The notes beneath the pieces were generated by a model. The model saw only the letters and a program-made list of their open reading frames with translations, was not told where the DNA came from and ran no database searches. A stretch of 58,059 nt of DNA, the filler included, from Jimgerdemannia flammicorona (taxonomy: Eukaryota): NCBI GenBank assembly GCA_003990765.1. It is 3 parts of 3 records of this genome, joined end to end, with 100 filler letters (N's around TTAATTAATTAA, not from the genome) between each part and the next. Parts side by side here need not be neighbours in the genome. Positions count along the whole stretch, not along the records: positions 38,775 to 58,059 come from RBNJ01001983.1; 2 more parts are not named here. One strand, given 5' to 3'. Positions 32,250 through 58,059 of this stretch are shown one piece after another. Both the position numbers and the translations under genes were made by a program. The number at the start of each line of letters is the position of its first letter. The stretch's first letter is position 1.

Positions 32250-32319
32250 TTGTGGAACAGTCCGCGCTAGTTCTAGTTCGGACTCAAAACCGGTCTTTTC
32301 TTGGGCGCCACAGAGCATG

Positions 32320-32445: not shown

Positions 32446-32465
32446 CCAATCAATTATTTGCCATC

Positions 32466-32712: not shown

Positions 32713-32754
<42 letters not shown>

Positions 32755-35007: not shown

Positions 35008-35494
35008 GCGGTGATTGGTACAGTTCTGATGGGGTGGGACGAGTAATATTTCATCTATAAAGTATTATATGTACAATGTTGATGAATAATTTGATAATTG
35101 TCCCTGGACTCAGCGCATATCGCGAATACACCACTCCAACCCTGCATCGCACTACCGAGTGGGCAAACGCGTGCCTCTGTTTGAAGATGCGATGTGACTG
35201 TAAAATTAGCGCATCTGAACTACGTATATATATATAATTACGTGGGGAACACAGGGCCATTAACGCACCTGTCGTACACACGACCACCACGCCATAATCC
35301 CGACATCCAGTCATCCAGTTGTGCATTCATTGCCGAAATCACCCCCGTGCGACTTGGCCATCGGCTCCACGGATGCACGCACGAATTGACTCATCTCTTG
35401 CCAATGCTAGCCCGCGTTCAGTTGGTAGGACCCAGCGGCTGTCGTGCCATTCGTCATAGCCTGCAGGCTCGTCAACGTTAAATAGAGTTGAGGG

Positions 35495-35577
<83 letters not shown>

Positions 35578-35925
35578 GCTAAAACCGTTCGTTTGCAGAC
35601 AAGATTGTCCTTGTGTATGGAAACCCGGGGCATTCACACACTATACAAGACCCCGGAAATAATATTATGTGGACGAATGCTAATCAGATGTGATGTATAT
35701 GATGGCAATTAAGGACGCTTGGATCCAGCAAGCGATGGGGAAAGAAGAAAAAGAAAATGCATTGGAGAGGCCATTGAGGTCTCGGCGGACATGATGGTGT
35801 AAGATATTACAGGAGAATTGGGACAGAGAAGATCAAAGAATAATTAGATCGACATACTCCAAGCAATAACAATCTAATGTTCGATCAAATAAACCGCTTA
35901 ACCACCCTCCCGTATTCCCATCAAC

Positions 35926-36786
35926 CTATCCCCTCAGCAAGAAGCTTCCTCTCCGCCGCAGCTTACGCCTAACCCACCCCAACGCTCTCTTCCACCTCCC
36001 TTGGCTCGGTTTCTCTCGCGGCATCCCGACCGACATCTCCTGCAAACTATCCATCTCGTCTGAATCGATCTGTATCTCCCACGGCGGCGTGTGCATCTTA
36101 AACAGCATCTTCCCCGTCATGATCTCACAATCTGGCCCGAAACCCGCGAAGTTCCCGCTCATGCACAGGCACATGAAGGGGAACGTGGTACCCTCATCGT
36201 ACTTCCCAGACGACCTCGACAGCTCGAGGTCAAAGAATGCGTAGATTTCGTGTGCAGCGCCGCTGTCCTGCGGGTAGACCTTACGGATGCGGCCGCGGCC
36301 GGGACGGAAACAGGTGGAGAGACCACCCTGGGGGAGGACGGTGTTGTCGGCGTGGTTGTCCCACGATGCGCAGAGGCCAAACATCTTTCGGAGGGCCGGG
36401 GCCGGGAGCATAGTGAGTTCGTTGAGGTTGCGGCGGCTATGGAGGACGTGGGTGAGGGCGAGGCTGACCTCGCGGGAGAGCGTTGGTTCGACGGGGGGGT
36501 TGTGGGAGGTGTCGCTGCTGCCAGAGAGCCAGAGACATATGGTGCGGTAGTGTTCAAAGTGGTATTCGAGTATTGTCATCTCGTCTGCAGTGAGGGTGAA
36601 GGGACACTCTGGGAACCGGTGGTGATGGAGTTGAAACCAGCTGTGGGAGGTAGCGGGGGCGGAGGCGACGGAATAGCAGAAGCGTGAGGTGAGGGCCAGG
36701 GAGACAAAGTCGGATCGGTCGGAGAGGCAAAGGAACACGGGAGCGAGGAGCTCTGGCGGCAGGGCGTTGATGGTTGTAAAGGACAT
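35926..36786 (-). CDS. F-box domain protein (single exon)
   Basis: N-terminal INALPPELLAPVFLCLSDRSDFVSLALTSRFCY fits the F-box pattern. 286-aa ORF; C-terminal domain unrecognised. Confidence 0.7.
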   Translation of the reverse strand: MSFTTINALPPELLAPVFLCLSDRSDFVSLALTSRFCYSVASAPATSHSWFQLHHHRFPECPFTLTADEMTILEYHFEHYRTICLWLSGSSDTSHNPPVEPTLSREVSLALTHVLHSRRNLNELTMLPAPALRKMFGLCASWDNHADNTVLPQGGLSTCFRPGRGRIRKVYPQDSGAAHEIYAFFDLELSRSSGKYDEGTTFPFMCLCMSGNFAGFGPDCEIMTGKMLFKMHTPPWEIQIDSDEMDSLQEMSVGMPREKPSQGRWKRALGWVRRKLRRRGSFLLRG

Positions 36787-37749
36787 AACTGTGTGGATGT
36801 TGGTTTGTGGAGAAGGTGGGTGGATAGGCTTGTGTCTCCAAGCGTAGAGGTTTTGTTTCTATTCCTTTGGTTTACTTTGCCACTAACTAATAATAGCTGA
36901 TTAATTGCAAATATTGTGGTGTTCCTTGATCCAGGCACAGGTTCATGGGCAGCCGCCCTGTGTGAGACTGACCAACCCACAACAACCTCGGACGCCGTTT
37001 TAACCGAATGCGATCTTCCCGCTGCCGCACGGATCAACCCCTGAACAGGAAATCCAGCTGCATGTGCGGAAGCCGCATAAAGGGCCGACCCGTTCGTGTC
37101 AACCTCCACCCAGGGCTGTACGTCATATGGCGCCGTCAGCTCCCGATTGCGTACAAACAATTTAAACATTTGAAATTGGCGCGTGAGTCCCATTATCATG
37201 TGCACCTCAGCCTCATCGTGTTTTCTGGAAGATAGGACTGTTTGCTCTTTGCTCCCCACCCCCCTCTTCTCTCCCTCCAGAGGTCTAGATCCCCGATGGC
37301 GATAATCGTCGAGCTACATCGAACTGATCTCCGAACGACGTGATAACAAATGGCATGCATCGTCTTTTTTAAAAATTATTTTGCCGCCACGAAATTGCAT
37401 ATATACAAGGGTTTATTAACCCCTAGCGCATAAACATAAACACGCATGCACAACGACGATCGAATTTTATATCACAGACATACCGATATCGGGTCCCAAC
37501 ATTACAACGAGCAAGAGATGGATATTTGTAAGCGGAGGCTCAATCTGAAAATATTATTTTCCGGTTTCAGAATGGATGAAACCGTCGATCAGGAACAAAA
37601 CCAGCCGAGTCCTCTATTAATGCAATACATATGTTTGAAATGTAACATCCATGAAAAGACATGCAATTTAACTAAAACAGAATAAATTAATGAAATAGTT
37701 ACAAGAGAAGAAACATCTAAAAACCACAAGGTTCCCACCTCAAACGTCC

Positions 37750-38306
37750 CTAAACTTCAGCAGCCTCCTTTTCAACGGGCTTCCCACTGCCGCCCAACCT
37801 CTGCCCCTTGACAAATAGCAAGGCGAGGAACGACGCACCAGCGATGGGGATGCCAACACGGAAGGAGCTTTGCAGAGAAAGGACGTATGCGTGCACGACA
37901 TAGGGGATGACAGCGGGAGGTAGATGTGACTGAATGGAGGTAATGGACTGGGAAACGGCTAGGGTAACGTTGGGGGTCTAAAAGGTTGGAGAGAAGTTAG
38001 CGATAGTGGTTTTGGTTGGAATTGAGGCTTGCAGGGATGAGGAAATTCCTACCAGCAATTCCGGCGGGACGACGCTCATGACGTTCTTTGGGAGGGCGTT
38101 CTGGAGGACGGTCGAGTAGATGCAGATGCCAATGGCGCCTGTTTGGTACAAGACGTTGGTGTTAGACTAGATCTCAAGGTGATGGAAAGACAGTTGCGGT
38201 GTACGTACCTCCAATATTTTGAAAAAATTGCGTCAAAGCTGTAACAATCGCTACGTCTGCAGAAAATGACACTTGAGAATCTCATCACCACACATAAAAC
38301 ATTCCG

Positions 38307-38674: not shown

Positions 38675-38774
38675 NNNNNNNNNNNNNNNNNNNNNNNNNN
38701 NNNNNNNNNNNNNNNNNNTTAATTAATTAANNNNNNNNNNNNNNNNNNNNNNNNNNNNNNNNNNNNNNNNNNNN
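38675..38774. other. Artificial contig linker/gap
   Basis: 44 N + TTAATTAATTAA + 44 N. Confidence 0.97.
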
Positions 38775-39328
38775 CTTTGGGGATTTATATACTGGTCTCA
38801 GTTCTGGCAGAAGTTAGCTAGGCTTCTGGAGTTTAGTCAGAAACACTAGAGTCACTTAGATGTCATTACTAAGACTCAGGGGAATGTGTGTGTGTGGGGG
38901 GACTTGATTCTTGTATCAAGGACTGAACTAAAACTGCTTTATTTCGGATGGAAACTTGGGGGGTATTTATACAAGTTGGTCCGCAATTTCTGACTAAGTA
39001 TGAGTGACTAATTTGATAACTATAATGAGGTTTGTGATCGCGACCTTTGTCAGGTGGTTTTTGGCAAAAACAACTTTTTGATCAGGACCTCAATTACTAG
39101 GCAATGATCAGCTGCTGTGGCAACTGTTGCTGCGGCACTGGCTGCGGTGCCAATTGTTGGGGATAAGCTAGATATCATTTTCCGTGTCATTTCGCATCGT
39201 TCGTACTCGCTATTCATATGTCGTGCTTCGATCGTATGGTGACGTCATCACTCGCCGGGTCACGTGATCGCTCATCGTTCGTCATTCGTCACGTCCCATC
39301 TGTTCCCTCATTCGTTCGTTCTATTACA
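38775..39328 (-). repeat. Gypsy LTR copy D (solo or 5' LTR; partial), CpG-rich
   Basis: LTR sequence ending TCTATTACA that abuts LINE sequence rather than a PPT. Confidence 0.9.
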
Positions 39329-41598
39329 GCAACCCATCTTCTCCAGGGGATGAACCAGTCTACATCTTCTATAATACCTCCAAGACTTCATCCAGAGATA
39401 CTTCACCCAACACTGCCTCCCCTATCTCAGGTACTGCTGCTACTGGCCAAGTGTCTACCATATTACCATCTTCCTCCCCTGGCACTGCATACTCTCCCTG
39501 CTCCCCTCCATCCTACCAGAGAGCCTGCTATTGTCTCAAGACCTCTCCCAACATATCAGCAATCTCAGTGACCTCTGTTCCATCATCATATAGTACTGAG
39601 GCCCAACTGTGTTGCACTATTCTGGCCTTCAAGACCCCAGACAGATATTTAGTTGGCCTCTCACCCTCCTCCAACTGCCTTGCCCATAGTCTGGCAAGTA
39701 GGCCATCTACTGCCCATCCTCAGTGGCCCTTAATTCAGTCTATAGCTCCGCCACCTCCACTGCTAGCTGGTAGCACTTCTCTCCAGACAGGTTCCCTCCT
39801 TCTATTAGCTTCAATCGCTATCTCAGTCCCCTTTCAACCCTCCTCACCTTATCCTTCTATTCCTTCCCAGCTATTTCTCCAACATCCCTCCAAAAAGCAC
39901 CAGCCAAATGTTTGAATTTACTCCACCATTCTGCTATTAGCTGCTCATTATTCTGCTACTATATTACTTCCTGCTGTCCAATTGCCACAAACTGATCTCT
40001 TTCCTTCTTCCTCTTGAGTAAAGCCACATTGAGATACCAGTGCCCATCACTACTGTTTGCTGCTTGAAACCAGCCACATACCTCTACTCCCCAATGATCT
40101 GACCAAGGGCACCAATACACCTCAGCAATATCCAGTACATTATCTCAAAACTCAGCAATCAGTATCTAATCAATTCACATTCCAACTAATTTGTCTCCCA
40201 CTGGGTACCATCAGGTGAATGGTCCTGACTCATCTCCCTGATGCTGATGGACACCATCCACCAGTCCCATATCATGCTCCACCTGAAGCCACTGAGATAG
40301 CTCAGGGGAGACCATTACACCTGTCCCTCCATCTGATCTGCCCAGTATCCTATCATGTACCATATTGAAATTCCCCCCCAGAATGTCCAGTACTACCACC
40401 TCCTGACCCTCCCAAGTCCACCAGTCCTCAACCCACTACTTTCCCTCTCTGCCAACTGCAGAGAGATAAACTGAGCCTACTGTGAGACTATCACCTGCCC
40501 CTCCTTTTAGCTTTCTCCACACCAATCTATCACCATACACCTCAACCTCCACTAGCTCACCTTTACCAACACCAACCAGGATACCCACCTGCTTGTTCCA
40601 GTCTATACTACTATACCATTCTTTACTCTACACCTCAAAGTCCTGCTTGCTATATGCCTGAACATCTTGAAGGAAAACAATATCATATCTTCTGACTTTA
40701 AGTCATCGAAACAGTCTCCACCTCTTAATACCATCATGCAACTCATTGATGTTGATTGATAATATATGTAAACTGTTCATCATCATCAAAGAATTATTTA
40801 AAGCTCAGCTGGGACTGCCACCACTTTCTCCACCCTTTCTCTAATGATCTCCCACTGGTCCTCACAAATCGCCCTCTAGATTTGATTATTATTTGTACTA
40901 TTGCAGAAAAGATCCACTCTTTCTGCTGCCACCTTTCTTATGTCTGCCATCCTACTCTCATTGACATCATATCCTTCATCATCCAGGAGAGCTGCAACCA
41001 TTGCTGTCACCAGCTTAGGCCCCTGCATCACCACATTGAGAAACCCCTCCCATGCCTCCTGAGATCCATGAAATACATCCACTTTCTTGATGTCTTCCTC
41101 TGTAGGTTCCTCAAGTACCACCTGATACCAGCTCTCTGCTGTCATTATCAGGGGCCCAGGAGTTGATGGCCTGGGGGTCCTGCTCAGCTCCTGCAGTTGT
41201 TCTCTGTCTACCGATACATCTGAAGCCATATCCACCAGCTTATCCTCCTCTGCAACCTTCTCCAGATGTACCACCTCACCAGCCTCAGGGTACTCCCAAT
41301 GAACATTCATTGCCCCAGCCATATGGGTGTCCTCAACCTGTGTCTCTAGTACTATTTCAATATCTACCTCAAAGCCTCCTTCTCCCACCTCCTCCCTATC
41401 TGCCCATTTCCCCTTCACTGGCACATGTGCTGAGCTCTCCACACCACCCAGCTGAGAGAAAGACACCTCTGCGGCCTCCACACCTTCCATCTGGTTCTTA
41501 GGCACCTCTACTCTCACCTTCTCTTCTACTGCTGCCCCCTGAAGGGCTGCCTGCAGATGCTCCCAATTTCCTTTCTACCATCACTTCCACTTATCATC
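39329..41598 (-). mobile_element. Degenerate non-LTR (L1/Tx1-like) retrotransposon: ORF1 end + AP endonuclease
   Basis: Minus strand shows remnants of INxNxLxD..KR..LF..L...YDIVFLQD, LGG(D/N)FN and SDH motifs of APE domains, with acidic ORF1 remnant 40876-41517 upstream. Confidence 0.7.
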
Positions 41599-42357
41599 TG
41601 TAATAACTCTCACTTCTACCCCTCTCTTATCCTTTGGATAATTAGGGAAGTGGACTATTACTTAGAGACTTAGTACACAATGTGTACTAAGAAGCCTTCA
41701 GTTTGAGGAAGCACTTGCTTATAAGTAGTTATAGTGGCAGTATCTTCTGTTTCAAAGGTCTTTCTCTTGTACCCTATTTCAAGGGTCTTGTTCTTTGCTG
41801 TGCACAGACTGAATTCGCCTTGGAATTCAGGTTCAATGGGTTTACTTAAGTCTTTGGGGATTTATATACCGGTCTCAGTTCTGGCAGAAGTTAGCTAGAC
41901 TTCTGGAGTTTAGTCAGAAACACTAGAGTCACTTAAGTGTCATTACTAAGACTCAGGGGAATGTGTGTGTGTGGAGGAGACTTGATTCTTATATTAAGGA
42001 CTGAACTAAAACTGCTTTATTTCAGATGGAAACTGGGGGGTATTTATACAAGTTGGTCTGCGATTTCTGACTAAGTATGAGTGACTAATTTGGTAACTAT
42101 AATGAGGTTTGTGATTGTGACCTTTGTAAGGTAGCTTTTGGTAAAGAATATCTTTATGATCAGGACCTCAATTACTAGGCAATGATCAGCAGCTGTGGCA
42201 ACAGTTGCTGCAGCACTGATTGTTGGAGATAAGCTAGATATCGTTTTCTGCATTGTTTTGCATCATTTATAATATTGTATGCTGCACTTGATTGTATGAT
42301 GATGTCATCATTGGTCACATGATCGTTCATTACATCCCATCTGTTCATTCTATTACA
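41599..42357 (-). repeat. 3' LTR of copy E
   Basis: TGTAATAACT...TCTATTACA followed by PPT complement. Confidence 0.92.
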
Positions 42358-42368
42358 TCCTTCTCCCC

Positions 42369-43199
42369 TTAGAAATCAACATCCTTGTTGATTGAGAAAT
42401 TAAGAACCAGAGGAGAGAAAGGTGGGGAATCCTGCTCAGGGCTGTTGGCATCTTCTTCAGTAGCAGGGGGGGTGGTGGTTGCTGATAGTTCACTGTCCAG
42501 GATGGAGAAGTCAATGAGGTCTGCAAATAGTTCTTGTATTGAGATAGGTGCTGGCATAGGGGTTCTCCATCTGATGTGGTTGGGGCCATCCAAGTAGGGT
42601 TCTTGGTCCTCGTGCCTGGGAATATCCATTCAGATGGGCAGTCCTTCAAAGAGATCAGAGAGGCCTTGGAGCCATTGGTCAGAGTTGTCATTCAGAAGGA
42701 GGCTCCAGTAGGGTTCACAGTCAGTGGACTTGAGGGTGATCCAGAAGTTGGCTTCTTGGGCTACCTTGATTTCTAGTTCGTCAATCTCAAAGAAGGAGAG
42801 GTTCTGGAAGTCCTTCAGTTGGACATAGTTGAGGTTGGGGATTGTAAAGAATATATAGCACATGATTCAATGGACCTTCTTGGCAAGTCTTTGCTTGCTC
42901 CTATCCAGGTGGGTCCAATCAGAGACTTGGTTCATGGGCAGGTCCTTTGCCTATTGGAGGAGTTAATGGCCAATCTTATATTTATACCAGATCTCTAGGT
43001 GGCTAGTGACAAGGTAGGCTCTTTTGATGACTTCATGACAGTTGAGGACATAGTGTCCTAGGTCCTTACTGGAGAGGTCAAGGGCCTCTGAGTGGCAGTT
43101 CCTTTCTTGGATAGCAACCTGGATGTGTCCAAAGAGGCAGTCAACCTGGCTTGGAAGGGGCTGACTATGGCGGGCAGTTTGACAGCGAGTGGCAGATAT
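42369..43199 (-). pseudogene. ORF3 of copy E (831 nt)
   Basis: Same frame as the other copies, with a 3-nt insertion. Start ATG mutated to ATA. Confidence 0.75.
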
Positions 43200-44912
43200 T
43201 CTTGTCTTGTCCTTTTCTTTGTGATGAGAGGGGGATGAGGGTTGTGGAGTATTCTTGCCTTGGGTATTTATAATTATTCACCCATCTGATGTGACCTTCC
43301 TTTGGTCATGCTTTCTGGCAAAATGCATGACCTGTTGCTGTAAGCAGGGCATGTGCTGGTCACATGAGAAAATCCTGATTTCAAAGATATCATCACTTAT
43401 AGTTATGGTTACACAAGGTTAATAGGTCTTGGTCCTCTTTTTTTTTGTCTGGTTGATGCATTTGCGAGGACTGGCCATCCTTGTCTAGGGCGAGGGCTCT
43501 CATTATCATGGCTGGGGGTTTGAACCTCTCAGAAATAGACTTATAATCTAAGGCAATTTCTAGTAACAATATCTGTCATGTGGATGGACTTAGACTGGTT
43601 CTGACATTGTTGGCTTTCCTAAGTTCCATATGAAGCATCTGTTATTATCCAGTTGAGATGATACAGATGTCATGAACTGGAGTTGTTCAAATGCATTTTG
43701 CTGTACTGTACTAAATTGTTCTTTTGCTCAGGTATCTTTTTGTTGGTTATCCATAGTGTTCCCTTTTTTTGCAATGTTTGGTATTATATGTTTCCAGATA
43801 AGTATATAGTATCCTTATGCTCACTGTGTGCTCCAAATCCTAGAGCTGCAGTTCCTTTCTTTGCTGAGGAGTGAGTGTTTCCATGTAGTCCTGGAGGGCT
43901 TTGTGTGTATTCTTCAGGGCTTCTTCTTTTTCTCAGGTGGTATCATGGTTGGGGTAACCCTTCCACTTGATCAGGAAAAACCACTTGACTGTTTTGGGAT
44001 ATTTGCGGACCTTGTGGTCAAGCACTTCCTCAATTTCGAATTCCTCATGATCATTGATCCTAATTGGGGGTAGTGGTGGAGTTGTATGCTCAGGGAATGG
44101 ATTCTCATAGTAGTCTACCAATTGGCTGATATGGAATACTGGGTATACTCAGAGATTGTAGGGAAGTTGCAACTTATAGTTGACTTCACTGATCTTTTCC
44201 ATGATCTTGTATGGTCCAATTCTTCTAGTACAGAGTTTCTTGGCTGGTTGTTGTGCCAGGGTGTCTGGGTGGAGGTGGTCCATTCTAAGCATAACCATGT
44301 CACCAATATTATAGGAGGCTTCTCTTCACTTCAAGTTCACATACTTGGTCTGATAGTCTTGTGCTTCTATGAGAGCATCTCTTGTCATTCAGGTAAGGTC
44401 AGAAATGGTCTTGGCCAGATCTTGGGCTGCTGGGACTACTGATTTCGCAGTAGTACTTAGGGTCCTCAGGTGTTGACCATGGTTCAGGAAGAATGGAGTC
44501 TTCTTTGTGGAGGTTTGCTAACTGTTATTGTAGGCAAACTCAGCATAGGTTAGGTATTTGTCCCAATCATTTTGCTTGTAATAGCAGAAGATGCTAAGCA
44601 TCTGTTTGAGAGTCCTGTTGGTATGCTCTGTTTGACCATCAGTCTGAGGGTAGTAGGCAGTAGAGAACTTCAACTTGGTTCCATGGAGAGAGAAAAATGC
44701 CTTCCAGAAGTTGCTTGTAAACTTGGCATCTTGGTCAGATACAATAGTATTAGGCATTCCATATAGCCTGAATACTTGATTGAGGAAAATCTTGGCAATC
44801 TCTGGTGCTGTAGCAGTGGTCTTGGTGGGTGCAAAATGGGCTTGTTTACTTAGGTGGTCCACGAATACCACAATGGTATCTCATCCTGCCTTGGTCTTGA
44901 GGAGTTGGACAA

Positions 44913-45724
44913 TATAATAGAATGAATGAGTGAACAGATGGGACATGACAAGACGAATGATTACATGACCCGGTGATAACATCATCATATGATCGAGTAT
45001 GGCATATGAATAATGAATAAATGAATGAATGATGCAAAACGACATGGAAAACAATATCCAGCTTATCCCCAATAATCGGTGCCGCAGCAATAGTTGCCAC
45101 AGCTGCTAATCATTACCTAGTAATTGAGGTCCTGATCACAAAGATATTCTTTACCAAAAACCACCTGACAAAAGTCGCGAACACAAACCTCATTATAGTT
45201 ACCAAATTAGTCACTCATACTTAGTCAGAAATTGTGGACCAACTTGTATAAATACCCCCCAGTTTCCATCCGAAATAAAGTAGTTTTAGTTTAGTCCTTG
45301 ATACAAGAATCAAGTCCCCCACACACACACATTCCCCTGAGTCTTAGTAATGACATCTAAGTGACTCTAGTGTTTCTGACTAAACTCCAGAAGCCTAGCT
45401 AACTTCTGCCAGAACTGAGACCGGTATATAAATCCCCAAAGACTTAAGTAAACCCATTGAATCTGAATTCCAAGGCGAATTCAGTCTGTGTACAGCAAAG
45501 AACAAGACCCTCAAAATAGGGCACAAGAGAAAGACCTTTGAAATAGAAGGCAAACCAGAAAAAGACCTTTGAAAGATAAGGCACTGCCACTATAACTACT
45601 TTAAGCGAGCACTTCCTCAAACTGAAGGCTTCTTGATACACATTGTGTACTAAGTCCCTAAGTAATAGTCCACTTCCCTAATTATCCAAAGGATAAGAGA
45701 GGGGTAGAAGTGAGAGTTATTACA
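44913..45724 (+). repeat. 5' LTR of copy F
   Basis: T(A)TAATAGAATG...GAGTTATTACA, with TATA-like TATAAATA at ~45247. Confidence 0.94.
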
Positions 45725-45727
45725 ACT

Positions 45728-45741
45728 TAGTAGCAGTGGAT
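45728..45741 (+). other. Primer-binding site, tRNA-iMet type
   Basis: Consensus over copies TGGTAGCAGCGGAT, 3 nt after the LTR; resembles the complement of eukaryotic initiator tRNA 3' ends (TGGTAGCAG...). Confidence 0.7.
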
Positions 45742-45810
45742 TACCAGCCAAGAAGGCACCAAAGAACACACTCCAGAAGTTGGAACAAGACCAACCTTGG
45801 ACAGGAGTAA

Positions 45811-48800
45811 CCCCCAGAACCAACTGTGGATCCTCAAACCAGAGCCAGAGAAGCTCTTACCATTAGGACCAGGTGGTACCAGGAAACCACAGACCCAAGG
45901 ACCCACTAGCTTGTAATTGATCAGGCTTACAAAGATCTATACCAGGCCTTTAGGACATACCACCCAGGACTTAGGAATATTGTTAGCTGCCGTAGGTTCT
46001 ATGAACTCCTCTGAGGACACATTGGAACCACTAGGACCCCAGAATCTACTGCTGCAGCCACCCAGGATTTTTTAGATTATATCACACCCCCTGCTGCAAG
46101 AGAAGCAGCTGCCGAGTGGATTGCCTCTGACAGATATCATCATACCCCTACCAAGACCTCCCTCTACTACAGGCTAGTTGTATACTACACCTCTGCCATA
46201 ACTAGGTATGAGAACGAGCAAGCAGGTCACCCATCCCCTACTGCTGAACAAGGAGCAGGTCCATCTACCCAGCCAGAGACTGATATCCTCTTTGAAGGAC
46301 CTAGCCAGTATGAGGATGCACTATCTCATCAGGGAAGGGAGTCAGATGAAGACTCTACAGGTTACCAGTCTGACGATAGCCAATGAGGAACAGCAGGCCT
46401 AGGAATTTACCAAGGACCCACAGGTCAAGAAGATCAGACCCCAGAACCAACTCAGCCACCTATACAAAGGTTTGGTTTACCCTCTCTCACAGGACTCTTT
46501 GACTTAATATCCAGGAACCAAGTAACTCCAAGTCATACAGCACTACAACCCCACCAAGCGGAACAATCTTCAGGAGAATCTACCCCAACAGGCCCACCAC
46601 CACTAGTCAACACAATGGTAGATATCAACATTGCAGCACTGACCACCCAGCTAGCAGCACTAGCAGGAATAGTAGGACAGATTGCTGAACAGAACAAACC
46701 AACCAAGACCTTGCGAATTCCAACATTCAGTGGAAAAAACAGTGACATTGAAAACTTCATCAATGCAGTTGACACAGGCTACCGAGCAAACCAATGGAAT
46801 GACAACCGAGTACCTATAGGAATACTCACCAATAACCAGAACAGTACCCTTCAACAGCTATTTGCCACATCAGCAGCACAAGTAGAAACAGTAGCCACAT
46901 TCTTCACTGGAACAGCAGCCAAATTCTGGCGAACCTTGGAACAATACCCAGTAACCTGGGAAGCCCGCCCTCAAGTCAATGGACAAGTACCTGGTAACAA
47001 TAGACCAGGTTGGAATGACTATGAAGCAGGCCCAGGACTCAAGGTCTTGCTACTGACCAAATTCTGAAATACAGCCTACATATAAGAAACTTGGAACAAA
47101 CTGTCCCAGATGAAGTTCCACAAGAATGACAAAGAAGATCTAGAGACCTTTGCCACCAGAATGGATGCATATCTCAAAATGATTGGACTTACCTATAAGG
47201 AGAACAATTTGGCCATCAATGGTACCAGAGCCAATTATCTCTTTGCAGCCCTATCAGACTGGCTCACCCAGAAGATCAAGGAACAAGGTCTTCCCCAAGG
47301 ATGTCCCCACTACTCATGGTGCTTTGCCCAAGTACAAAAAAGAGCCCATGAAATCCTTGCTGCACAAGCTCCATGAAATCAAGAACACAAGAAGGATAAC
47401 CAAGATAGAAGAAATCCTACCAGGAGAAATGATCAAAGGAATGACCAAAGATATGATCAAAGATATGATCAAAGGAACCAGCGAAACCCCAGAGGACCCA
47501 GACCTCCTACTGAGGATGAGAAGAAGCAGCTCCATGAAAAAGGATTGTGCTTTATCTGCAAGAAGGCAGGACATATCTCAGTCAAATGCCCTGAGAAGAG
47601 AAACAAATCAGGTGAACCCAGTAACTAGAATATTACTGTCATTGGAGAAGGTCTAGAAAAGAAGAACCCCAAGAATGTCATCAAAGTACAGAAGATATGG
47701 TACAAGGCTACCATCTCCACTAAGGCCCACCCAATGGATGCTGGATATGATCTCTACAGCAGCCAAGACCTCACCATCCCACCAAGTACCAATGCTACAG
47801 TGCGAACAGAGATTGCAATGCAAGCTCCCAAAGGAACATACATCTGCCTTGCTGAGCGAAGTAGCCTAGCCAAAGAATTCAACATTGGGCTAGGTAGAGG
47901 AGTAGTTGACCAAGGATTTACTGGTGAAATCCATGTCATCTTGTGAAATTTTGGAGATATCTCATTTGAAGTCAAAACAGGCCAAAGGATTGCCCAAGCA
48001 ATCATTGAAGAAATCCATCAAGATCTCACCATTGAAGAAGTCCCTGAACTCTCCAGAACCATGGCAAGAAAGGGTTTAGATCTACTAACAAACCTCCCAG
48101 TCAAAAGGTCACTACCATAAAGGAAGATGATGAAAACTGGTACAAGAGAATTGCAGATGGTTATGCACTGTGTGGATGATGCTCTCATTCCATTCAAATG
48201 TACTGCATGGAACATGTTGGCAAATGCCATGCATACCTCTCCAAAGTTTTCAAAATTCAATCCGAGAAGCACCAAGCTCAACAGACTGAGGAACCCAAAC
48301 AAGACAACCCTCCTTGTGAAGGATGGAGAGAAACAGACTTCGAGGAGACTGACAGCAATTGGGACAACAATGAGGATGAAGAGTTCAATACCATCAAGAA
48401 GGATGACAGTTGTATCAAGTTCACAGGCCAAGTCTACAGACAGAATGTCAATGTCTTGCTTGATAGCAGTGCTACTGAAAACTACATCAGTACTAAGACT
48501 GCCAAGAGGATTGGAGCCCAAAGCAGACCCACTACTGAGAAAAGAAGTGTTACCTTTGGTGATGGAAAAACTGCACCATTGACTAAGATCTGTGAAGACC
48601 TTTTGCTCAAAATTGGCAAATATCAAGAGAAGTTGGACTTCAGCATTGTAGACCTCCCAGGATAAGACATTATCTTAGGAAAAGCCTGGTTGACCCAGTA
48701 CAACCCAGACATCAACTGGAGAACCAACGAGGTTAACCTGACCCACGAAGGCAGAAAGATCACCCTGACACTCAGGAAGATACCCACCACCAAGGAATCG

Positions 48801-51800
48801 AAATCATCTCTGCTATTCAAATGAAGAGACTCTCTCGAAAAAAGGGAAACACCTATTTCATCTGTACAGTACAAGAAGTCACTGAAGCCACAAGTAGCCC
48901 AATTCCAACAGAAGCTTAAGAACTGTTCGAAGAATTCCAAGATGTATTCCAAGATCCCCAAGGACTTCCACCCAAGCACCAAATCCAACATGGAATTGAT
49001 CTTATCCCAGGATCTGAATCCCCATACAAGAGTATCTACTAACTGGCCCAACCTGAGCTCAAGACCCTCAAGGATGAGTTGACCAAACTACTGGCCCAAG
49101 GATACATTGAACCCAGCCACTCTCCATTTCGAGCCCCCATTCTATTTGTCAAGAAAAAGTATGGATCTCTGTGAATATGTATTGACTACAGAGCCCTCAA
49201 CAAGATCACCATCAAGAACTGATATGCCTTGCCCAGGATTGATGAGTTACTACACCAAATCTTCAAGGCCAAGACCTTTTCTCTACTAGATTTGTGAAAT
49301 GGCTACCACCAGATTCTCATTGATAAGAAGGACATTGAGAAGACAGCTTTCCAAACATGGTTTGGACACTACCAGTTCTGAGTCATGCCTTTTGGATTGA
49401 CCAATGCACCAGCAACATTCCAGTATCTGATGAATGACATCTTTGGACTACTTCTCAACATCTGTATCCTTGTGTATATTGATGATATACTAATCTACAG
49501 CAAGACAGTAGAGCTACACTACACCCACCTTAGACAAGTACTGACTCTTCTGCGAGAACACCAGCTCTATGCCAAGATGAGCAAGTGTAAGTTCTACCAA
49601 GACCAGATTGAGTACTTAGGACACATCATCTCTGCTGAAGGTATCAATGTGGACCCTGAAAGGTATCAGCCCTTAAGGATATCCCTATCCCTACTACCCT
49701 CAAGCTACTCCAGCACTTTCTGGGTATTGCTGGTTATTACCAAAGGTTTATCCAAGGATACTCTGCTATTACAGCCCCATTGACCAGCCTGGCCTGTAAA
49801 GGAGTGAACATCAAAGCTGAATGGACTCCCGAATGCATCCTGGCTATGGACCATCTCAAGAGACTCCTTACTGAGGCCCCAGTGCTAATTGCACCTGATC
49901 CTACCAGACCATTCACTCTGACCACAGATGCCTCTGACATTGCTATTGGAGCAGTGCTCAGCCAAGAAGACTGCCCAGTGGCCTACCTTTCACAGAAGCT
50001 CAAGCCAGCTGAGACCCGATATACCACCCATGAGAAGGAACTCCTGGCTATTATCACTGCACTCCAGGAATGGCACCACTTCCTCCTAGGACAGCTATTT
50101 GTAGCCTACACTGATCACTATGCACTGTGGTATATTCACACACAGCCCATGCTGACCTACAGACAAGCCCACTGGATGGAAATCATTGCCAACTTTGATA
50201 TGGAAATCAAGTATATCCCAGGCAAAACCAACCATATGGCTGATGGTTTCTCCAGGTACATGGAAGATGAACTTGTCTTCATGGTCGAAGTAATTGGAGA
50301 CCTTACTCAAATGATCAAGGACAGCTACCAGAAAGACAGCCCCCTGATGAATTTCCTTCAATTCTGCCAAGACCCAGAGGCCGAGATTCCAGAACCCATG
50401 AGGCAAATGGCCAAGAGATTCATCTACAATGATGGACTTATCTACAGGGACCATGACAGAGTAGTTGTATCCAACAATGATACTCTGTGACTCAAGATCA
50501 TGCAGGAACTCCATGATACTCCTACAGTAGGACACTTTGGTTTTGAAAAGACCTACAACCTCCTTTCAAGAGATTTCTACTGGCCAAAGATGACCAAGGA
50601 TATCAAAGACTTTGTGGCCTCATGCGAGATGTGCCAAAGGTTCAAAAGTGGTAACAAGCTACCAGCAGGACTCCTGCAACCCTTACCTATCCCAAGTCAC
50701 AATTGGGACCAGATTGCGATGGACTTCATTGTCCAACTCCCTAAGACCAAGGCAGGATGGGATGCTATTGTGGTATTCATGGACTGCCTAAGTAAATAAG
50801 CCCATTTTGCACCCACCAAGACCACTGCTACAGCACTAGAGATTGTCTAGATCTTTCTCAACTAAGTATTCAGGCTATATGGCATACCTAGCACCATTGT
50901 ATCTGACCGAGATGCTAAGTTCACAAGCAATTTCTGGAAGGCATTTTTCTCCCTCCATGGAACTAAGCTGAAGTTCTCTACTGCCTACAACTCTCAGACT
51001 GACGGTCAAACCGAGTGAACCAACAGGACTCTCAAACAGATGCTTAGCATCTTCTGCTGTTACAAGCAAAATGATTGGGACAAGTACCTAGCCCATGCTG
51101 AGTTTGCCTACAATAATAGTCAGCAAACCTCCACAAAGAAGACTCCATTCTTCCTGAACCATGGTCAACACCCAAGGACCCCAAGTACTACCACGAAATC
51201 AGCAGTCCCAGTAGCCCAAGATCTGGCTGAGACCATTTCTGACCTCACCTGAATGACAAGAGATGCTCTCATAGAAGCACAAGACTACCAGACCAAGTAC
51301 ACGAACTTGAAGCAAAGAGAAGCCTCCTACAATATTGGTGATATGGTCATGCTTAAAACAGACCACCTCCACCCAGATACCCTGGCACAACAACTAGCCA
51401 AGAAACTTCGTACTAGAAGAATTGGACCATACAAGATCATGGAAAAAATCAGTGAAGTTAACTACAAGTTGCAACTTCCCCACAATATCCGAGTACACCC
51501 AGTATTCCATATCAGCCAATTGGTGGGCTACCATAAGAACTCATTCCCTGAGTGTACAGTTCCACCACCACCCCCAATTAGGATCAATGATCATGAGGAA
51601 TTTGAAATTGAGAAAGTACTTGACCACAAGGTCCGCAAATATCCTAAAACAGTCAAGTGCTTTTTCCTGATCAAGTGGAAGGGTTACTCCACCTATGATG
51701 CCACCTGGGAAAAAGAAGAAGCCCTAAAGAATGCACATGAAGCCCTCCAGGACTACATGGAAACACTCACTCTCCAGCAAAGGAAGGAACTACAGCTCTA

Positions 51801-51801
51801 A
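45811..51801 (+). pseudogene. Gag-dUTPase-PR-RT-RH-IN-chromodomain polyprotein of copy F (stops and frameshifts)
   Basis: IPTFSG Gag, CFICKKAGHISVKC knuckle, dUTPase, LLDS protease, YIDD, TDAS/EKELLA, H..GH..C..C integrase, GPY/F, EFEIEKVL..KWKGY..TWE chromodomain. Confidence 0.93.
47680..48085 (+). pseudogene. dut: dUTPase domain inside the retrotransposon polyprotein
   Basis: All five trimeric dUTPase motifs across copies: AGYDL, RSSLA, GVVDQGFTGEI, GQRIAQAI, RGKKGFGST. Confidence 0.92.
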
Positions 51802-52446
51802 GTATAGGAGCACACAGCGAGCAGAAGGATACCACATATTTTTATCTGGAAACATATAATACCAAACATTGTGAAAAAAGGAACACTATAGATAACCAAC
51901 AAAAAAGATATTCTGAACAAAAGAACAATCTAGTACAGTACAGCAAAATGTATTTGAATAACTCCATTTCACGCCATCTGTGTCATCTCCACTGGATGAT
52001 GACGGATGCTTCATGTGAAACTTAGGAAAGCCGACAATGTCAAAACCAGTCTAAGTCTATCCATGTGACAGATATTATTACTAAGAATTGCCTTGGATTA
52101 CAAGAAAGTCTATTTCTGAGAGGTTCAAACCCCCAGCCACGACAATGGGAGCCCTCACCCTAACAAGGATGGCCAGTCCTCGCAAATATGTCAACCAGAC
52201 AAAAAAAATGTGGACCAAGACCTGTTAACCCTGTGTAACCACAACTATAGGTGACAAGATCTTTGAAATCAGGATTTTCTCATATGACCAGCACATGCTC
52301 TGCTTACAGCACAGATTATGCATTTTTGCCAGAAAGCATGACCAAAGGAAGGTTATATCAGATGGGTGAATAAGTATAAATACCCAAGGCAAGAATACCC
52401 CACAACTCTCATCCCCCTTTCCTTACAAAGAAAAGACAAGACAAGA

Positions 52447-53274
52447 ATGCCTGTCACCTGCTGCCAAACTGCCCACTATAGTCAGCCCCTCCTAAGCCAG
52501 GTTGACTGCCTCTTTGGACACATCTAGGTTGCTATCCAAGGAAGGAACCGCCGCTCAGAGGCCCTTAACCTCTCCAGCCCAGACCTAGGACAGTATGTCC
52601 TTGACTGCTGTGAAATTATTGAAAGGGCCTACCTTACTACCAGCCACCTAGAAATCTGGCACAAATATGAAATTGGTCACCAGCTTCTCCAATATACAAG
52701 TGGCCTACCCATGGACCAGGTCTCTGACTGGACTCACCTAGACAGGCATGAGCAAAGACTTGCCAAGAAGGTCTATCAAATTATGCACCATGCACTCTTC
52801 ATGATCCCCAACCTCAACTATATATAACTGAAGGACTTCTAGAACCTCTCTTTCCCTGAGGTCGATGCCCTAGAAGTCAAGGTCGCCCAAGAAGCCAACT
52901 TCTGGATTGCCCTCAAGTCTACTGACATCAAACCTCATTAAAGCCCCCTCCTGAATGACAATCCTGACCAATGACTCCAAGGTCTCTCTGACCTCTTTGA
53001 AGAACCACCTATCTGAATGGATATTCCCAGGCATGAAGATCAAGAGTCCTACTTAGATGGCCCCAACTGCATCAGATGGAGAACCCCTACACCAGCACCT
53101 GTCCCAATGCAAGAACCATTTGCAGACCTCATTGACTTCTCTATCCTGGACAGCAAACCATCAGTAACCACCCCCCCTGCCCCTGAAGAAGATGGTAACA
53201 ACCCTGAGGAGGATTCCCCACCTTTCTTTCCCCTGGTTCACAATTTCTCAATCAATGAGGACATTGATTTCTAA
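52447..53274 (+). pseudogene. ORF3 of copy F (275 aa, unknown function)
   Basis: ATG 52447 in frame with 52711 and 53017. Stop overlaps the PPT. TATAAA at ~52375. Confidence 0.8.
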
Positions 53275-53285
53275 GGGGGGAAGAA

Positions 53286-54097
53286 TGTAATAGAATGAAT
53301 GAGCAAACAGAAGGGACATAACGAGATGAATGATCATGTGACCCGGTGATGACATCATCATACAATCGAGTGCAGCATATGAATAATGAACGAATGAACG
53401 AATGATGCAAAATGATGTAGAAAACAATATCCAGCTTATCCCCAATAATCAGTGCCGCAGCAATAGTTACCACAGCTGCTGATCATTGCCTAGTAATTGA
53501 GGTCCTGATCACAAAGATATTCTTTACCAAAAACCATCTGACAAAAGTCATGATCACAAACCTCATTATAGTTACCAAATTAGTCACTCATACTTAGTCA
53601 GAAATCGCAGACCAACTTGTATAAATACCCCCCAGTTTCCATCCGAAATAAAGTAGTTTTAGTTCAGTTCTTGATACAAGAATCAAGTCCCCCACACACA
53701 CACATTCCCCTGAGTCTTAGTAATGACATCTAAGTGACTCTAGTATTTCTGACTAAACTCCAGAAGCCTAGCTAACTTCTGCCAGAACTGAGACCAGTAT
53801 ATAAATCCCCAAAGACTTAAGTAAATCCATTGAACCTGAATTCCAAGGCGAATTCAGTCTGTGCACAGCAAAGAACAAGATCCTTGAAATAGGGCACAAG
53901 AGAAAGACCTTTGAAACAGAAGGCAAACCAGAAAAAGACCTTTGAAAGATAAGGTACTGCCACTACAACTACTTTAAGCAAGTGCTTCCTCAAACTGAAG
54001 GCTTCTTGGTATACATTATGTACTAAGTCCCTAAGTAATAGTCCACTTTCCTAATTATTCAAAGGATAAGAGAGGGGTAGAAGTGAGAGTTATTACA
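53286..54097 (+). repeat. 3' LTR of copy F
   Basis: TGTAATAGAATG...GAGTTATTACA after PPT AAGGGGGGAAGAA. Confidence 0.95.
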
Positions 54098-57000
54098 GAC
54101 AATGAAGTCCATTACAATCTGGTCCCAGTTGTGACTTGGGATAGGCAAGGGTTGCAGGAGTCCAGCTGGTAGCTTGTTACCACTTTTAAACCTTTGGCAC
54201 ATCTCATATGAGGTCACAAAGTCTTTGATGTCCTTGGTCATCTTTGGCCAATAGAACTCTCTTGAGAGAAGGTTGTAGGTTTTTTCAAAACCAAAATGTC
54301 CTGCTACAGGAGTATCATGGAGTTCCTGCATGATCTTGAGTTGCAGAGTATCATTGTTGGGTATAACCACTCTGTCATGGTCCCTATAGATAAGTCTATC
54401 ACGATAGGTGAATCTCTTGGCCATTTGCCTCATGGGTTCTGGAACCTCGGCCTCTGGATCTTAGCAGAATTGATGGAAGTTCATCAGGGGGCTGTCCTGC
54501 TGGTAGTCATCCTTGATCATTTGGGTAAGGTCTCCAATTACTTTGACTATAAAGACAAGTTCATCTTCTATATACCTGGAGAAACCATCAGCCACACAGT
54601 TGGTTTTGCCTGGGATATACTTGATTTCCATATCAAAGTTGGTAATGATTTCCATCCAGCAGGCTTGTCAGTGGGTCAGCATGGGCTGTGTGTGAATATA
54701 CCACATGTATAGTGATCAGTGTAGGTTATAAATGGCTGTCCTAGGAGGAAATGGCACCATTCCTGAAGTGCAGTGACAATAGCCAGAAGTTCCTTCTCAT
54801 GGGTAGTATACTGGGTCTCAGCTGGCTTGAGCTTTTGAGAAAGATAGGCCACTGGGTGGTCTTCTTGGCTGAGCACTGCCCCAATGGCAATGTCAGAGAT
54901 ATCTGTGGTCAGAGTAAATAGTCTGGTAGGGTCAGGTGCAATTAGCACTGGGGCCTCAGTAAGGAGTCTCTTGAGATGGTCCATAGCCAGAGTGCATTTG
55001 GGGGTCTATTCAGCTTTGATGTTTACTTCTTTGCAGACCAGGCTGGTCAATGGAGCTGCAATAGCAGAGAATCCTTGGATAAACCTTCAGTAATAACCAG
55101 CAATACCCAGAAAGTGCTGGAGTAGCTTGAGGGTAGTAGGGATAGGGATATCCTTAAGGGCTGATACCTTTCAGAGGTCTACATTGATACCTTCAGCAGA
55201 GATGATGTGTCCTAAGTACTCAATCTGGTCTTAATAGAACTTATACTTGCTCATCTTGGCATAGAGCTGGTGTTCTCATAGGAGGGTCAGTACTTGTCTG
55301 AGGTGGGTGTAATGTAGCTCTACTGTCTCACTGTAGATTAGCATATCATCAATATACACAAGAACACAGATATTGAGGAGTGGTCCAAAGATGTCATTCA
55401 TCAGTTACTGGAATATTGCTAGTATATTGGTCAATCCAAAAGATATGACTTGGAACTGGTAATATCCAAACCATGTTCAGAAAGCTGTCTTCTTGATGTC
55501 CTTCTCATCAATAAGAATCTGGTTATAGCCATTTCACAAATCCAGTAGAGAAAAGGTCTTGGTCTTGAATATTTGGTGTAGCAACTCATCAATTCTAGGT
55601 AAGGCATACCAGTTCTTGATGGTGATCTTGTTGAGGGCTCTGTAGTCAATACATATTCACAGAGAGCCATCCTTCTTCTTGACAAATAGAATGGGGGCTC
55701 CAAATGGAGAGTGGCTGGGTTCAATGTATCCTTGAGCCAGTAGTTTGGTCAACTTGTCCTTGAGGGTCTTGAGCTCAGATTGGGTCAGTTGGTAGATACT
55801 CTTGTATGGGGGTTCAGATCCTGGAATAAGATCAATTCCATGTTGGATTTGGTGCTTAGGTGGAAGTCCTTGGGGGTCTTGGAATACATCTTGGAATTCT
55901 TCGAATAGCTCTTGAGCTTCTGTTGGAATTGAACTACTTGTAGCTTCAGTGACTTCTTGTACTGTACAGATGAAGTAGGTGTTTTCCTTTTTTCAAGAGA
56001 GTCTCTTTATTTGAATAGCAGAGATGATTTCGATTCCTTAGTGGTTGGTACCTTCCTGTAGTATCAGAGTGATCTTTCTACCTTTGTGGGTCAGGTTAAT
56101 CTCATTGGTTCTCCAGTTGATGTCTGGGTTGTGCTGGGTCAACCAGGCTTTTCCTAAGATAATATCTTGTCCTGAGAGGTCTACAATGCTGAAGTCTAAC
56201 TTCTCTTGATATTTGCCAATCTTGAGCAAAAGATCTTTGCAGATCTTGGTCAATGGTGCAGTTTTACCATTACCAAAGATAACACTTCTTTTCTCAGTAG
56301 CTGGTCTGCTTTAGGCTCCAATCCTCTTAGCAGTCTTGGTACTGATATAGTTTCCAGTAGCACCACTATCAAGCAGGACATTGACATTTTGTCTGTGGAC
56401 TTGGCCTGTGAACTTAATGCTACTCTCCTCCTTTTTGATGGTATTGAGCTCTTCATCTTCATTGTTGTTGTCCTAATTGCTATCAGTCTCCTCAAGTCAG
56501 TTTCTCCCCATTCTTCACAAGGTGGGTTGTCTTGTTTGGGTTTCTCAGTCTGTGGAGCTTGGTTTCTTTCAGAGTTGATTTTGAAAACCTTGAAGAGGCA
56601 TGCATGGCATTCACTAACATGTTCTATGCAGTATATTCAAATAGAATGAGGGCATCATCCACATGGTGCATAACCATCTGCAATTCTCTTATATCAGTTT
56701 TCATCATCTTCCTTCATGATAGTGACCTTTTGACTGGGGGGTTTGTTGGTAGATCCAAACCCTTTCTTGCTACAGTCTGTCTGGGAGAGTTCAGAGACTT
56801 CTTCAATGGTGAGATCTTGATGGATTTCTTCAATGATTGCTTGGGCAATCCTTTGGCCTGTTTTGACTTCAAATGATGTGTCTCCAAAATTTTGCAAGAT
56901 GACATGGATTTTGCCAGTAAATCCTTGGTCAACTACTCCTCCTCCTAGTCCAATGTTGAACTCTTTGACTTGGCTGCTTTGTTCAGCAAGGTGGATGTAT

Positions 57001-57756
57001 GTTCCTTTGGGGGCTTGTATTGCAATTCCTGTTCACACTGTAGCATTGGTGCTTGGTGGAATAGTGAGGTCTTGGCTGCTGTAGAGATCATATCCAGCAT
57101 CGATTGGATGGGCCTTAGTGGGGATGGTAGCCTTGTATCATATCTTCTGTACTTTGATGACATTCTTGGGGTTCTTCTTTCCTGGGCCTTCTCTAATGAT
57201 AGTAATGTTCTGGTTACTGGGTTTGTCTGATCTGTTTCTCTTCTTGGGACATTTGACTGAGATGTGTCCTACCTTCTTGCAGATAAAGTACAATCTCTTT
57301 TCGCAGAGCTGCTTCTTCTCATCCTCAGTGGGAGGTCTGGGTCCTCTGAGATTTCGCTGGTTCCTTTGATCATTTCTCTTGATAGGATTCCTTCTATCTT
57401 GGTTATCCTTCTTGTGTTCTTGAATTCGTGGAGCTTGTGCAGCAAGGATTTCACAGGCTCTTCTTTGTACTTGGGCAAAGCACCATGAGTAGTGAGGATA
57501 TCCTTTGGGAAGACCTTGTTCCTTGATCTTCTGGGTGAGCCAGTCTGGTAGGGCTGCGAAGAGATGGTTGGCTCTGGTACCATTGATGACCAAATTGTTC
57601 TCCTGGTAGATAAGTCTAATGGTTTTGAGGTAGGCATCCATTCTGGTGGCAAAGGTCTCTAGATCCTCTTTGCCATTCTTGTGGTACTTCATCTGGGATA
57701 GTTTATTTCAAGTTTCTTGTATGTAGGCTGCATTTCGGAATTTGATCAGTAGCAAG

Positions 57757-58059
57757 TAGTGCTCCGCAAACCCAACCCGATTAACCCGAAACCTGACCCG
57801 TAAAACAGCCAACCCGGAATTAGACGTCACCCGTCTTTAACCCAACCCGGAATTATACGTCACCCGTCTTTAACCCGACCCGGAATTATACGTCACCCGT
57901 CTTTAACCCGACCCAGAATTGTACGTCACCCGTCTTTAACCCGACCCGGAATAATACGTCACCCGTCTTTAACCCGACCTGGAAATGTATATCACCCGAC
58001 CCGTTATTTACCCTTAACCCAAACCTGAACCCGACCCCTGAACCCGACCCTGAACCCGA
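57757..58059. mobile_element. Terminus of a probable hAT-superfamily DNA transposon
   Basis: Gag sequence stops sharply at 57756. The new sequence begins TAGTGCTCCGC (TAG/CAG-type TIR start) and is dense in ACCCGA/ACCCGACCCG subterminal motifs, with CpGs intact. Confidence 0.55.
57811..58003 (+). repeat. ~6 x 33-bp tandem repeat
   Basis: Unit (G/A)ACCCGGAATTATACGTCACCCGTCTTTAACCC starting at 57811, 57844, 57877, 57910, 57943 and 57976. Confidence 0.9.

Follow-up and report, generated by a model that had tools for sequence, protein, structure and literature searches.

A conserved, non-envelope third reading frame in Ty3/Gypsy chromoviruses of Jimgerdemannia flammicorona

A reading frame between pol and the polypurine tract

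We analysed a stretch of 58,059 nucleotides (nt; filler included) from Jimgerdemannia flammicorona (assembly GCA_003990765.1), which joins three parts of three records and is referred to here as the window. It contains several copies of one family of long terminal repeat (LTR) retrotransposons. One of them, the complete element F, is a Ty3/Gypsy chromovirus that carries, between the end of pol and its 3' LTR, a further open reading frame (ORF), which we term ORF3. We regard ORF3 as very probably a real gene. It is kept by purifying selection across lineages whose synonymous divergence (dS) exceeds 1, and it represents a family, undescribed in the literature searched, of sense-strand, non-envelope (non-Env) proteins in fungal chromoviruses, extra ORFs as such being already known in LTR retrotransposons. 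That ORF3 is more than a chance frame follows from its relatives outside the window and from its ratio of nonsynonymous to synonymous divergence (dN/dS, or omega). A previous sequence-only reading of this DNA had proposed a conserved accessory gene other than Env, and this proposal is borne out by an intact ORF in a soil-metagenome contig, a dN/dS of 0.23 and the lack of a transmembrane segment, all detailed below.

In element F, ORF3 occupies positions 52447-53274 of the plus strand (275 codons plus stop), with its ATG at 52447, 645 nt downstream of the pol stop (51799-51801), and its TAA at 53272-53274. The last two bases of this stop are covered by the polypurine tract (PPT), AAGGGGGGAAGAA, at 53273-53285 on the same strand. 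BLAST against the window yielded three further full copies and one fragment, all on the minus strand. First, copy B (9054-9881) is the best preserved in the window, with stops at codons 82 and 190 only. Second, copy E (42369-43199) is 3 nt longer, has four stops, and has ATA in place of the initial ATG, a change that the sequence-only reading had overlooked. Third, copy A (839-1682) contains stops, with 15 additional nt following codon 5 and a frame that shifts by +1 near codon 205, a shift that the sequence-only reading had also overlooked. The fragment, C (19183-19278), retains the last ~30 codons plus the PPT and adjoins a run of N. Thus, the layout first described, a sense ORF of about 275 residues some 650 nt after pol in A, B, E and F, with its end in C and its stop overlapping the PPT, was recovered in full. 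The accompanying claim that length differences preserve the frame holds for the insertions of copies A and E, but not for the frameshift of copy A.

The window copies are dead: once inserted, they decayed through C>T and G>A changes and lost function, as three observations attest. First, copy F has in-frame stops at codons 27, 127, 132, 165, 176 and 190, and, taking CGA as the original codon at positions 82, 111 and 190, every one of the 17 stop occurrences among the copies (13 codon positions) can be reached from sense codons of other copies by one or two C>T or G>A transitions, as had been anticipated. Ten of these 13 positions are private to one copy, the common ones being codons 83 (E and A), 176 (F and A) and 190 (F, B and E). 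Second, transitions account for 981 of the 1,072 private changes among copies (91%). Third, CpG is depleted, with observed/expected ratios of 0.15 in element F and 0.09 in its ORF3, compared with 1.05 in the neighbouring host genes (22000-37000) and 0.53 in the intact relative. The low CpG and the excess of transitions fit transposon-targeted cytosine methylation followed by deamination, or a process resembling repeat-induced point mutation. As to the dinucleotide context of the mutations (CpG versus CpA), CpG decay is saturated, so that the majority state among the copies is itself decayed.

Relatives of ORF3 were found outside the window, the DNA context of the gene being available for the window and for one metagenomic contig. 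Copy B served as query in a word-based search, covering 5.8 billion proteins, which returned a protein of 214 residues, without stops and 62% identical to it, and a cluster mate of this protein led to a soil-metagenome contig, L001. This contig encodes an intact ORF of 291 codons, also in sense orientation, as in all four window copies. The sequence TATAAAAG lies 81 nt before its ATG, and its TAA overlaps a polypurine run, GGAGGGAGGAT, which is followed by the LTR start TGTAATAAG. The order of TATA box, ORF, PPT and LTR in L001 is therefore the same as in the window. At the protein level, copy F matches the 291-residue ORF with 54% identity (tblastn, E 3e-81), and the L001 protein is 53-54% identical to B, E and F over 264-273 residues (E 1e-81 to 1e-89), with copy A matching in two pieces. 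For the flanks in L001, in contrast, no alignment with the window family is possible, and the best matches are 11 nt (E 0.09) for the 375-nt spacer and 23 nt (E 0.002) for the 274-nt part of the LTR.

A HMMER scan of 1.84 billion representative sequences gave five proteins at E<=0.001, the best with E values of 4e-120 and 2e-77, and a separate profile search also gave five among 5,824 scored candidates. With cluster mates, the family is small and comprises 14 proteins in seven clusters, all from ENA or JGI/IMG metagenome sources and all either unnamed or called 'hypothetical protein', so that it is invisible to transposon and genome annotation pipelines. Four soil-metagenome runs, belonging to two studies, supplied short contigs for comparison with F at a likeness of at least 85%, and the rows listed have sense codons at four of the six stops of copy F (C at 52525, C at 52825, GG at 52940-52941 and G at 52974). 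All contigs that cover codons 127, 165 or 176 have a sense codon there, as do nearly all of those over codon 27. A search of sequencing runs matched soil-metagenome DNA runs only, with shares of at most 0.20, and no RNA run. There was no relative among IMG/VR viral contigs, no paralogue elsewhere in the window, and no homologue or fused longer form among proteins of 600-2000 residues, the latter being weak evidence. The best match in the ESM Atlas (0.92) belongs to an unnamed cluster whose recognition value of 2174 is below the level of 2300, and was not used.

Selection on ORF3 was evaluated by the Nei-Gojobori method, whose estimates run low here for reasons given in the last section. Between L001 and copies B, F and E, dN/dS is 0.23 at a dS of 1.35-1.49, and the same alignment read in its two shifted frames gives 0.84-1.43. 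A value close to 1 would be expected of an unselected frame, and the value obtained is far below it. Constraint is stronger in the core of the protein (codons 52-201), with dN/dS of 0.13-0.15 against L001 and of 0.17-0.22 between window subfamilies. Among the window copies, ORF3 has an omega of 0.22-0.33, close to the 0.25-0.35 of pieces of gag and pol. In its base composition, ORF3 is also like pol and unlike host genes.

As for openness, copies F, B and E have 2-6 internal stops in frame 0, against 7-10 in frame +1 and 22-25 in the remaining frame. Since frame +1 also has few stops, openness within the window is, by itself, weak evidence for a gene. Antisense open frames occur over the 3' half of ORF3 in copy B (9081-9458, plus strand, 125 codons) and in L001 (922-1428, minus strand, 168 codons), and copy F has no antisense frame of at least 80 codons over ORF3. 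These frames are probably a by-product of codon composition.

ORF3 is also the most diverged segment between subfamilies. Its identity is 82.2% for the pair F-A (pol, 89.4%; LTR, 88.5%), 82.7% for F-E (pol, 90.3%; LTR, 92.3%) and 92.3% for F-B (pol, 92.6%; LTR, 90.3-92.8%). The excess is located in the core, as F and E are 74-81% identical across 52600-53050, compared with 87-93% in pol, spacer and LTR, and it is synonymous, with a dS of 0.59-0.81 in the core versus 0.16-0.28 in the N-terminal part and the tail and 0.22-0.26 in pol. This suggests either that older lineages exchanged the core like a cassette or that mutation was locally in excess, with constraint on the protein continuing in both cases.

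Candidate promoter and predicted protein

The 645-nt spacer between pol and ORF3 in element F (51802-52446, plus strand) is non-coding, is conserved among window copies, and contains a candidate internal promoter. A 12-mer, GTATAAATACCC, at 52374-52385 on the plus strand is the same as the TATA 12-mer of the LTR, and includes the TATA box TATAAATA at 52376-52383, 71 nt before the ATG, very close to the ~70 nt first estimated. With at most one mismatch, this 12-mer occurs 13 times in the window, namely, upstream of the four ORF3 copies (at 9943-9954 for copy B) and in nine LTR copies, and nowhere else, when 0.2 occurrences are expected by chance. A TATA box stands 71-81 nt before the ORF3 start in all four window copies and in L001, and it is the one feature common to the window and L001 spacers, which otherwise do not align. 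None of these five sequences has an ATG between the TATA box and the start codon, which chance alone would give in about one case out of three. By eye, no similarity between the upstream region of ORF3 and the LTR extends beyond the 12-mer. On these grounds we lean, by a little, towards ORF3 having its own TATA promoter in the spacer. The separate transcription proposed in the sequence-only reading is consistent with them. The sole colinear exact match between the two spacers is a 10-nt patch around GGATGGCCA (52164-52173 in the window, 27-36 in L001; E 0.36), some 280-350 nt before the start of ORF3, which may be due to chance.

In each LTR, TATAAATA is followed 20 nt on by AATAAA, as in the 3' LTR of F, where they are found at 53620-53627 and 53647-53652, respectively. 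This poly(A) signal probably lies at or upstream of the transcription start, and would therefore function in the 3' LTR only. Given its distance from the TATA box of the LTR, an ORF3 mRNA would end there, as genomic RNA does.

The predicted product is a soluble protein of two parts, a helical core and a disordered, acidic tail rich in hydrophobic residues. The maximum Kyte-Doolittle mean over 19 residues is 0.59-1.07 in the five members analysed, none of which has a transmembrane or signal peptide-like segment by hydropathy, which agrees with the earlier view that ORF3 is not an Env. Seven members searched against Pfam at E<=0.1 gave nothing above curated cut-offs, MRPL52 and Apo-CIII (E 0.13-0.22) being sub-threshold noise, and a search of PDB sequences returned no match when a single sequence was the query and, at best, E 0.23 when a profile was. 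Together with the searches of longer proteins described above, these results reveal neither a known host gene nor a described ORF family. Comparison with the gag of the element by hhalign gave probabilities of 0.7% and 0.1%, that is, no relation.

AlphaFold modelled the whole protein with a predicted local distance difference test score (pLDDT) of 46, disordered throughout after residue 190. When only the core was modelled, from an alignment of ten sequences, pLDDT rose to 67 with a predicted template modelling score of 0.60, and the model, of medium confidence, places helices within residues 21-187 and a small hairpin at 203-215. The core is thus predicted to be all-helical, of about 200 residues and without a recognisable fold, consistent with its helical look in the sequence. 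The best VIA-align matches (Z 5.7 for the whole protein and 4.8 for the core) are below the noise level for helical proteins, and those of Foldseek are at noise level, both against PDB (E 1.2 and 0.53, respectively) and, for the core, against BFVD (E 0.19). No fusion glycoprotein family was matched in sequence or fold, though a member of one could escape such comparisons.

The tail has an isoelectric point (pI) of 4.05, with 13-26 acidic residues (D and E) versus 1-4 basic ones (K and R), and its most acidic windows of 40 residues have net charges of -9 to -16 and contain 2-9 W, F, Y or L residues. Two short motifs recur among the nine sequences checked. First, [DN]LIxF is found in seven, and twice in one of them (P0008). 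Second, [VIT]LN[FI] is found in six, with a decayed VHNF in copy F. The sequence-only reading had described an acidic, proline-rich tail ending in EDIDF, of which the acidity stands, but the terminal DIDF is restricted to the window and L001 lineages. At this end of the gene, the two lineages share 18 identical nt (GGACATTGATTTCTAAGG, 53258-53275; 1236-1253 in L001), which run from the final codons of ORF3 through its stop into the PPT, even though dS in the tail is above 1. This is a weak hint that DIDF may be kept in part by PPT-adjacent sequence rather than by the protein, and a cis-acting signal, lying 5' of the PPT and overlapping the coding sequence, may reside in GGACATTGATTTCTAAGG.

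The carrier element and its surroundings

Element F extends from 44913 to 54097 on the plus strand, within the part of the window that comes from RBNJ01001983.1, and is bounded by a target-site duplication of 5 bp, GACAA, at 44908-44912 and 54098-54102. Its LTRs, of 812 bp each, are 93.2% identical to one another. The 5' LTR (44913-45724) begins with TATAATAG, decayed from TG, and terminates with TTATTACA, and the 3' LTR (53286-54097) begins with TGTAATAG. Between them, the decayed gag-pol (46615-51801) encodes protease, reverse transcriptase, RNase H, integrase (H2C2 and SH3_Tf2-1) and chromodomain. In the pol of F (48198-51798), Pfam recognises, in this order, protease, RVT_1 (E 1e-21), RNase H (RT_RNaseH_2, E 1e-34), Integrase_H2C2 (E 2e-22), SH3_Tf2-1 (E 2e-20) and a C-terminal Chromo domain (E 1.8e-12). 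It is this order of protease, reverse transcriptase, RNase H and integrase, plus the chromodomain at the integrase C terminus, that identifies F as a Ty3/Gypsy chromovirus. F is inserted in the integrase region of the older copy E of the same family, whose halves lie at 41597-44912 and 54098-58059 on the minus strand. An Rfam scan of 44900-54100 gave no match, and tandem repeats between 51700 and 53400 amount to two, both trivial.

Elsewhere in the window, copies A and B adjoin at about 8225, and more LTR pieces are found at 16623-19278 and 38775-39328. The chromovirus nests flank, on either side, an island of host genes (21000-38000) of fungal appearance, with short introns and a GC content of 0.49-0.58. 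Its genes encode a KH-domain protein, an Mrp51-like mitochondrial ribosomal protein, an alpha/beta hydrolase whose Atlas matches include homoserine O-acetyltransferase MetX, a Methyltransf_8 protein (Rrp8-like), a trehalase and an F-box-like protein. The Atlas cluster of the hydrolase is eukaryotic, with Ascomycota the most frequent group, which is a weak taxonomic pointer. Four runs of 44 N, 176 N in total, mark the inner edges of the nests (19288-19387 and 38675-38774) and are masked or unassembled.

Possible functions and relation to known systems

The best single explanation of these data, which we favour only tentatively, is that ORF3 is a selected accessory gene, with its own promoter, whose product is a trans-acting regulator with an acidic tail. 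The architecture of the protein, with a conserved and structured core followed by a disordered, acidic tail that carries short hydrophobic motifs, suggests a trans-acting adaptor. Under this explanation, an ORF3 mRNA of about 1.2 kb would be transcribed from the spacer promoter and would share its 3' end in the LTR with genomic RNA. Its product would act in trans as a regulator, with a core that would supply specificity and an acidic tail that would raise transcription from the two look-alike TATA promoters of the element by recruiting co-activators of the host. The result would be a positive feedback similar to that of Tas in foamy viruses. For the transactivator-like role taken separately, which is read from sequence features, our confidence is low.

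The closest parallel to the tail is the PCET/LDFS motif of E-protein AD1, GTDKELSDLLDFS, in which LDFS is described as binding GCN5, and the hydrophobic pattern as binding the KIX and TAZ2 domains of CBP/p300 (PMC3874172, PMC8283981). PFADLIDFS, in ORF3, has the same D, L, D, F and S as the ELSDLLDFS of PCET, is hydrophobic at all four hydrophobic positions, and likewise lies in an acidic and disordered setting. This likeness favours the activation-domain reading of the tail, and with it a Tas-like feedback on two promoters. The comparison of the tail with an activation domain made in the sequence-only reading is thus apt, both in composition and in motif, but as a resemblance and not as homology, since other lineages have LIIFE, LINFS, LITFS or LISFS, and the P0012 lineage has no such motif.

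Several points weigh against a promoter-driven transactivator. On the gene itself, the near-neutral pair F-B still gives an omega of 0.33-0.35, and Nei-Gojobori omega is biased low because of the transition excess among private changes; the argument for selection therefore rests on the shifted-frame control and on the comparison with pol, and not on the absolute value. The TAG that E and A share at codon 83 may mean that ORF3 was already broken in the active ancestor of both copies, and if so, ORF3 is dispensable in cis. On the promoter, an A-rich tract with AG dinucleotides lies just 5' of the ATG, and a spliced subgenomic ORF3 mRNA is possible. On the protein, the resemblance to PCET spans nine residues, and motifs of the type [DN]LIxF may also fit the SUMO-interacting, Atg8-interacting and clathrin box classes. 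P0012 and P0011, which represent one lineage, have neither [DN]LIxF nor [VIT]LN[FI]. Moreover, the core is near-neutral (pI 5.6-6.4), and its matches to folds of the helix-turn-helix type are noise (Z < 5); with no DNA-binding fold above noise in either model (Z 4.8 and 5.7), an activator bound to DNA is unsupported.

A rival explanation is that ORF3 is a real accessory protein whose acidic tail attracts host machinery outside transcription. SUMO or heterochromatin factors, with an anti-silencing effect, are candidates, as are Atg8 or trafficking adaptors and those chromatin proteins that might direct integration jointly with the integrase chromodomain. We consider this possible but doubtful. 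The gene-level evidence for it is identical to that for a trans-acting regulator of transcription, the core is not basic, and [DN]LIxF with flanking acidic residues and Ser may fit SUMO- or Atg8-interacting patterns. The element also nests in its own copies, F inside E, and silent chromatin is therefore relevant to it. Against it, no fold or family match points towards SUMO, Atg8 or targeting pathways.

A less probable explanation, which we regard as unlikely, is that ORF3 acts on the proteins or the RNA of the element itself, either as a cofactor of assembly or reverse transcription, or as a self-limiting control of copy number. A precedent is p22 of Ty1, a copy-number-control factor that is made from an internal transcript. 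Expression apart from gag-pol, as the candidate promoter would provide, permits an independent dose, and action in trans would account for the spread of copies whose ORF3 was broken early, at codon 83. However, ORF3 has no similarity to gag, as the hhalign comparison indicates.

A remnant, in which ORF3 would be a degenerate env, or else a host gene that was captured and serves no role for the element, is very improbable. Its place in the element, which is that of env, would agree with this. However, the hydropathy of the five members, the lack of a Pfam match in all seven, of a longer homologue (weak evidence) and of a paralogue in the window, the pol-like base composition, and purifying selection across lineages at dS above 1 all speak against a remnant. 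Finally, a chance open frame in C/A-rich sequence, which the stop-poor frame +1 and a composition that lowers stop density might suggest, is practically discounted by the intact ORF of L001, by a dN/dS far below the ~1 of shifted frames, and by a protein that matches at 54-58% amino-acid identity (E 1e-72 to 1e-89) between flanks that cannot be aligned.

The trans-acting regulator that we favour can be compared with extra genes of other retroelements. In foamy viruses, Tas and Bet are expressed from an internal promoter, and Tas is described as activating both this promoter and the LTR (PMC13220597). Like tas and bet, ORF3 is an accessory gene 3' of pol with an internal promoter, a candidate one here, and its product is a proposed trans regulator with an acidic C-terminal part. 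Unlike them, it resides in a fungal host and in an element without env, has no sequence or fold similarity to the foamy proteins, and both its promoter and its activating function are inferred.

The Tor elements of Oikopleura, of Ty3/Gypsy type, are reported to have a third ORF that is transcribed independently of the LTR from a promoter (Penv) in pol or in the space after it (PMC4402516). The arrangement is like the one proposed for ORF3, with a third ORF after pol and a promoter in the pol or intergenic region. In this account, however, the Tor ORF3 is a membrane glycoprotein, Env, and its promoter was mapped by rapid amplification of 5' cDNA ends, whereas the fungal ORF3 has no transmembrane segment and its promoter is a candidate. 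Env is likewise the extra ORF of errantiviruses.

Bdelloid rotifer LTR retrotransposons also have non-env third ORFs after pol, described as encoding a GDSL esterase and a DEDDy exonuclease (PMC5408684). Those are recognisable enzymes, whereas none of the seven fungal ORF3 members reaches the cut-off of any Pfam family. Among fungi, brtn is presented as an additional gene of Boty-like Gypsy elements from Botrytis cinerea (PMC8365987). It is antisense, whereas ORF3 is in the sense strand and ends on the PPT, a distinction drawn from the published description of brtn and not from its sequence. A survey of fungal LTR elements covers chromodomains and 'complex' nested elements, and the passages on these mention no such ORF (PMC3248453). 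Within titles, abstracts and passages, our literature search gave no description of a Gypsy element from fungi in which a sense ORF follows the chromodomain integrase and precedes the PPT, and the antisense brtn was the only other extra gene of fungal elements that it met.

A more specific scenario, which we offer as speculative and rather unlikely, is that of 'complex' chromoviruses in which a second promoter that copies the TATA core of the LTR would drive an activator of a new fold. Its LDFS-like tail would recruit co-activators of the SAGA or Mediator type, forming a Tas-like switch that arose independently of retroviruses, and its core would be swapped as a cassette between co-resident subfamilies.

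Fungal LTR retrotransposons are usually treated as gag-pol machines, and ORF3 extends the retroelement toolkit by a new protein family. The gene also provides a tractable case for the study of how a retrotransposon that has landed in silent, transposon-rich chromatin may be transcribed, or of other ways in which such an element may manipulate its host.

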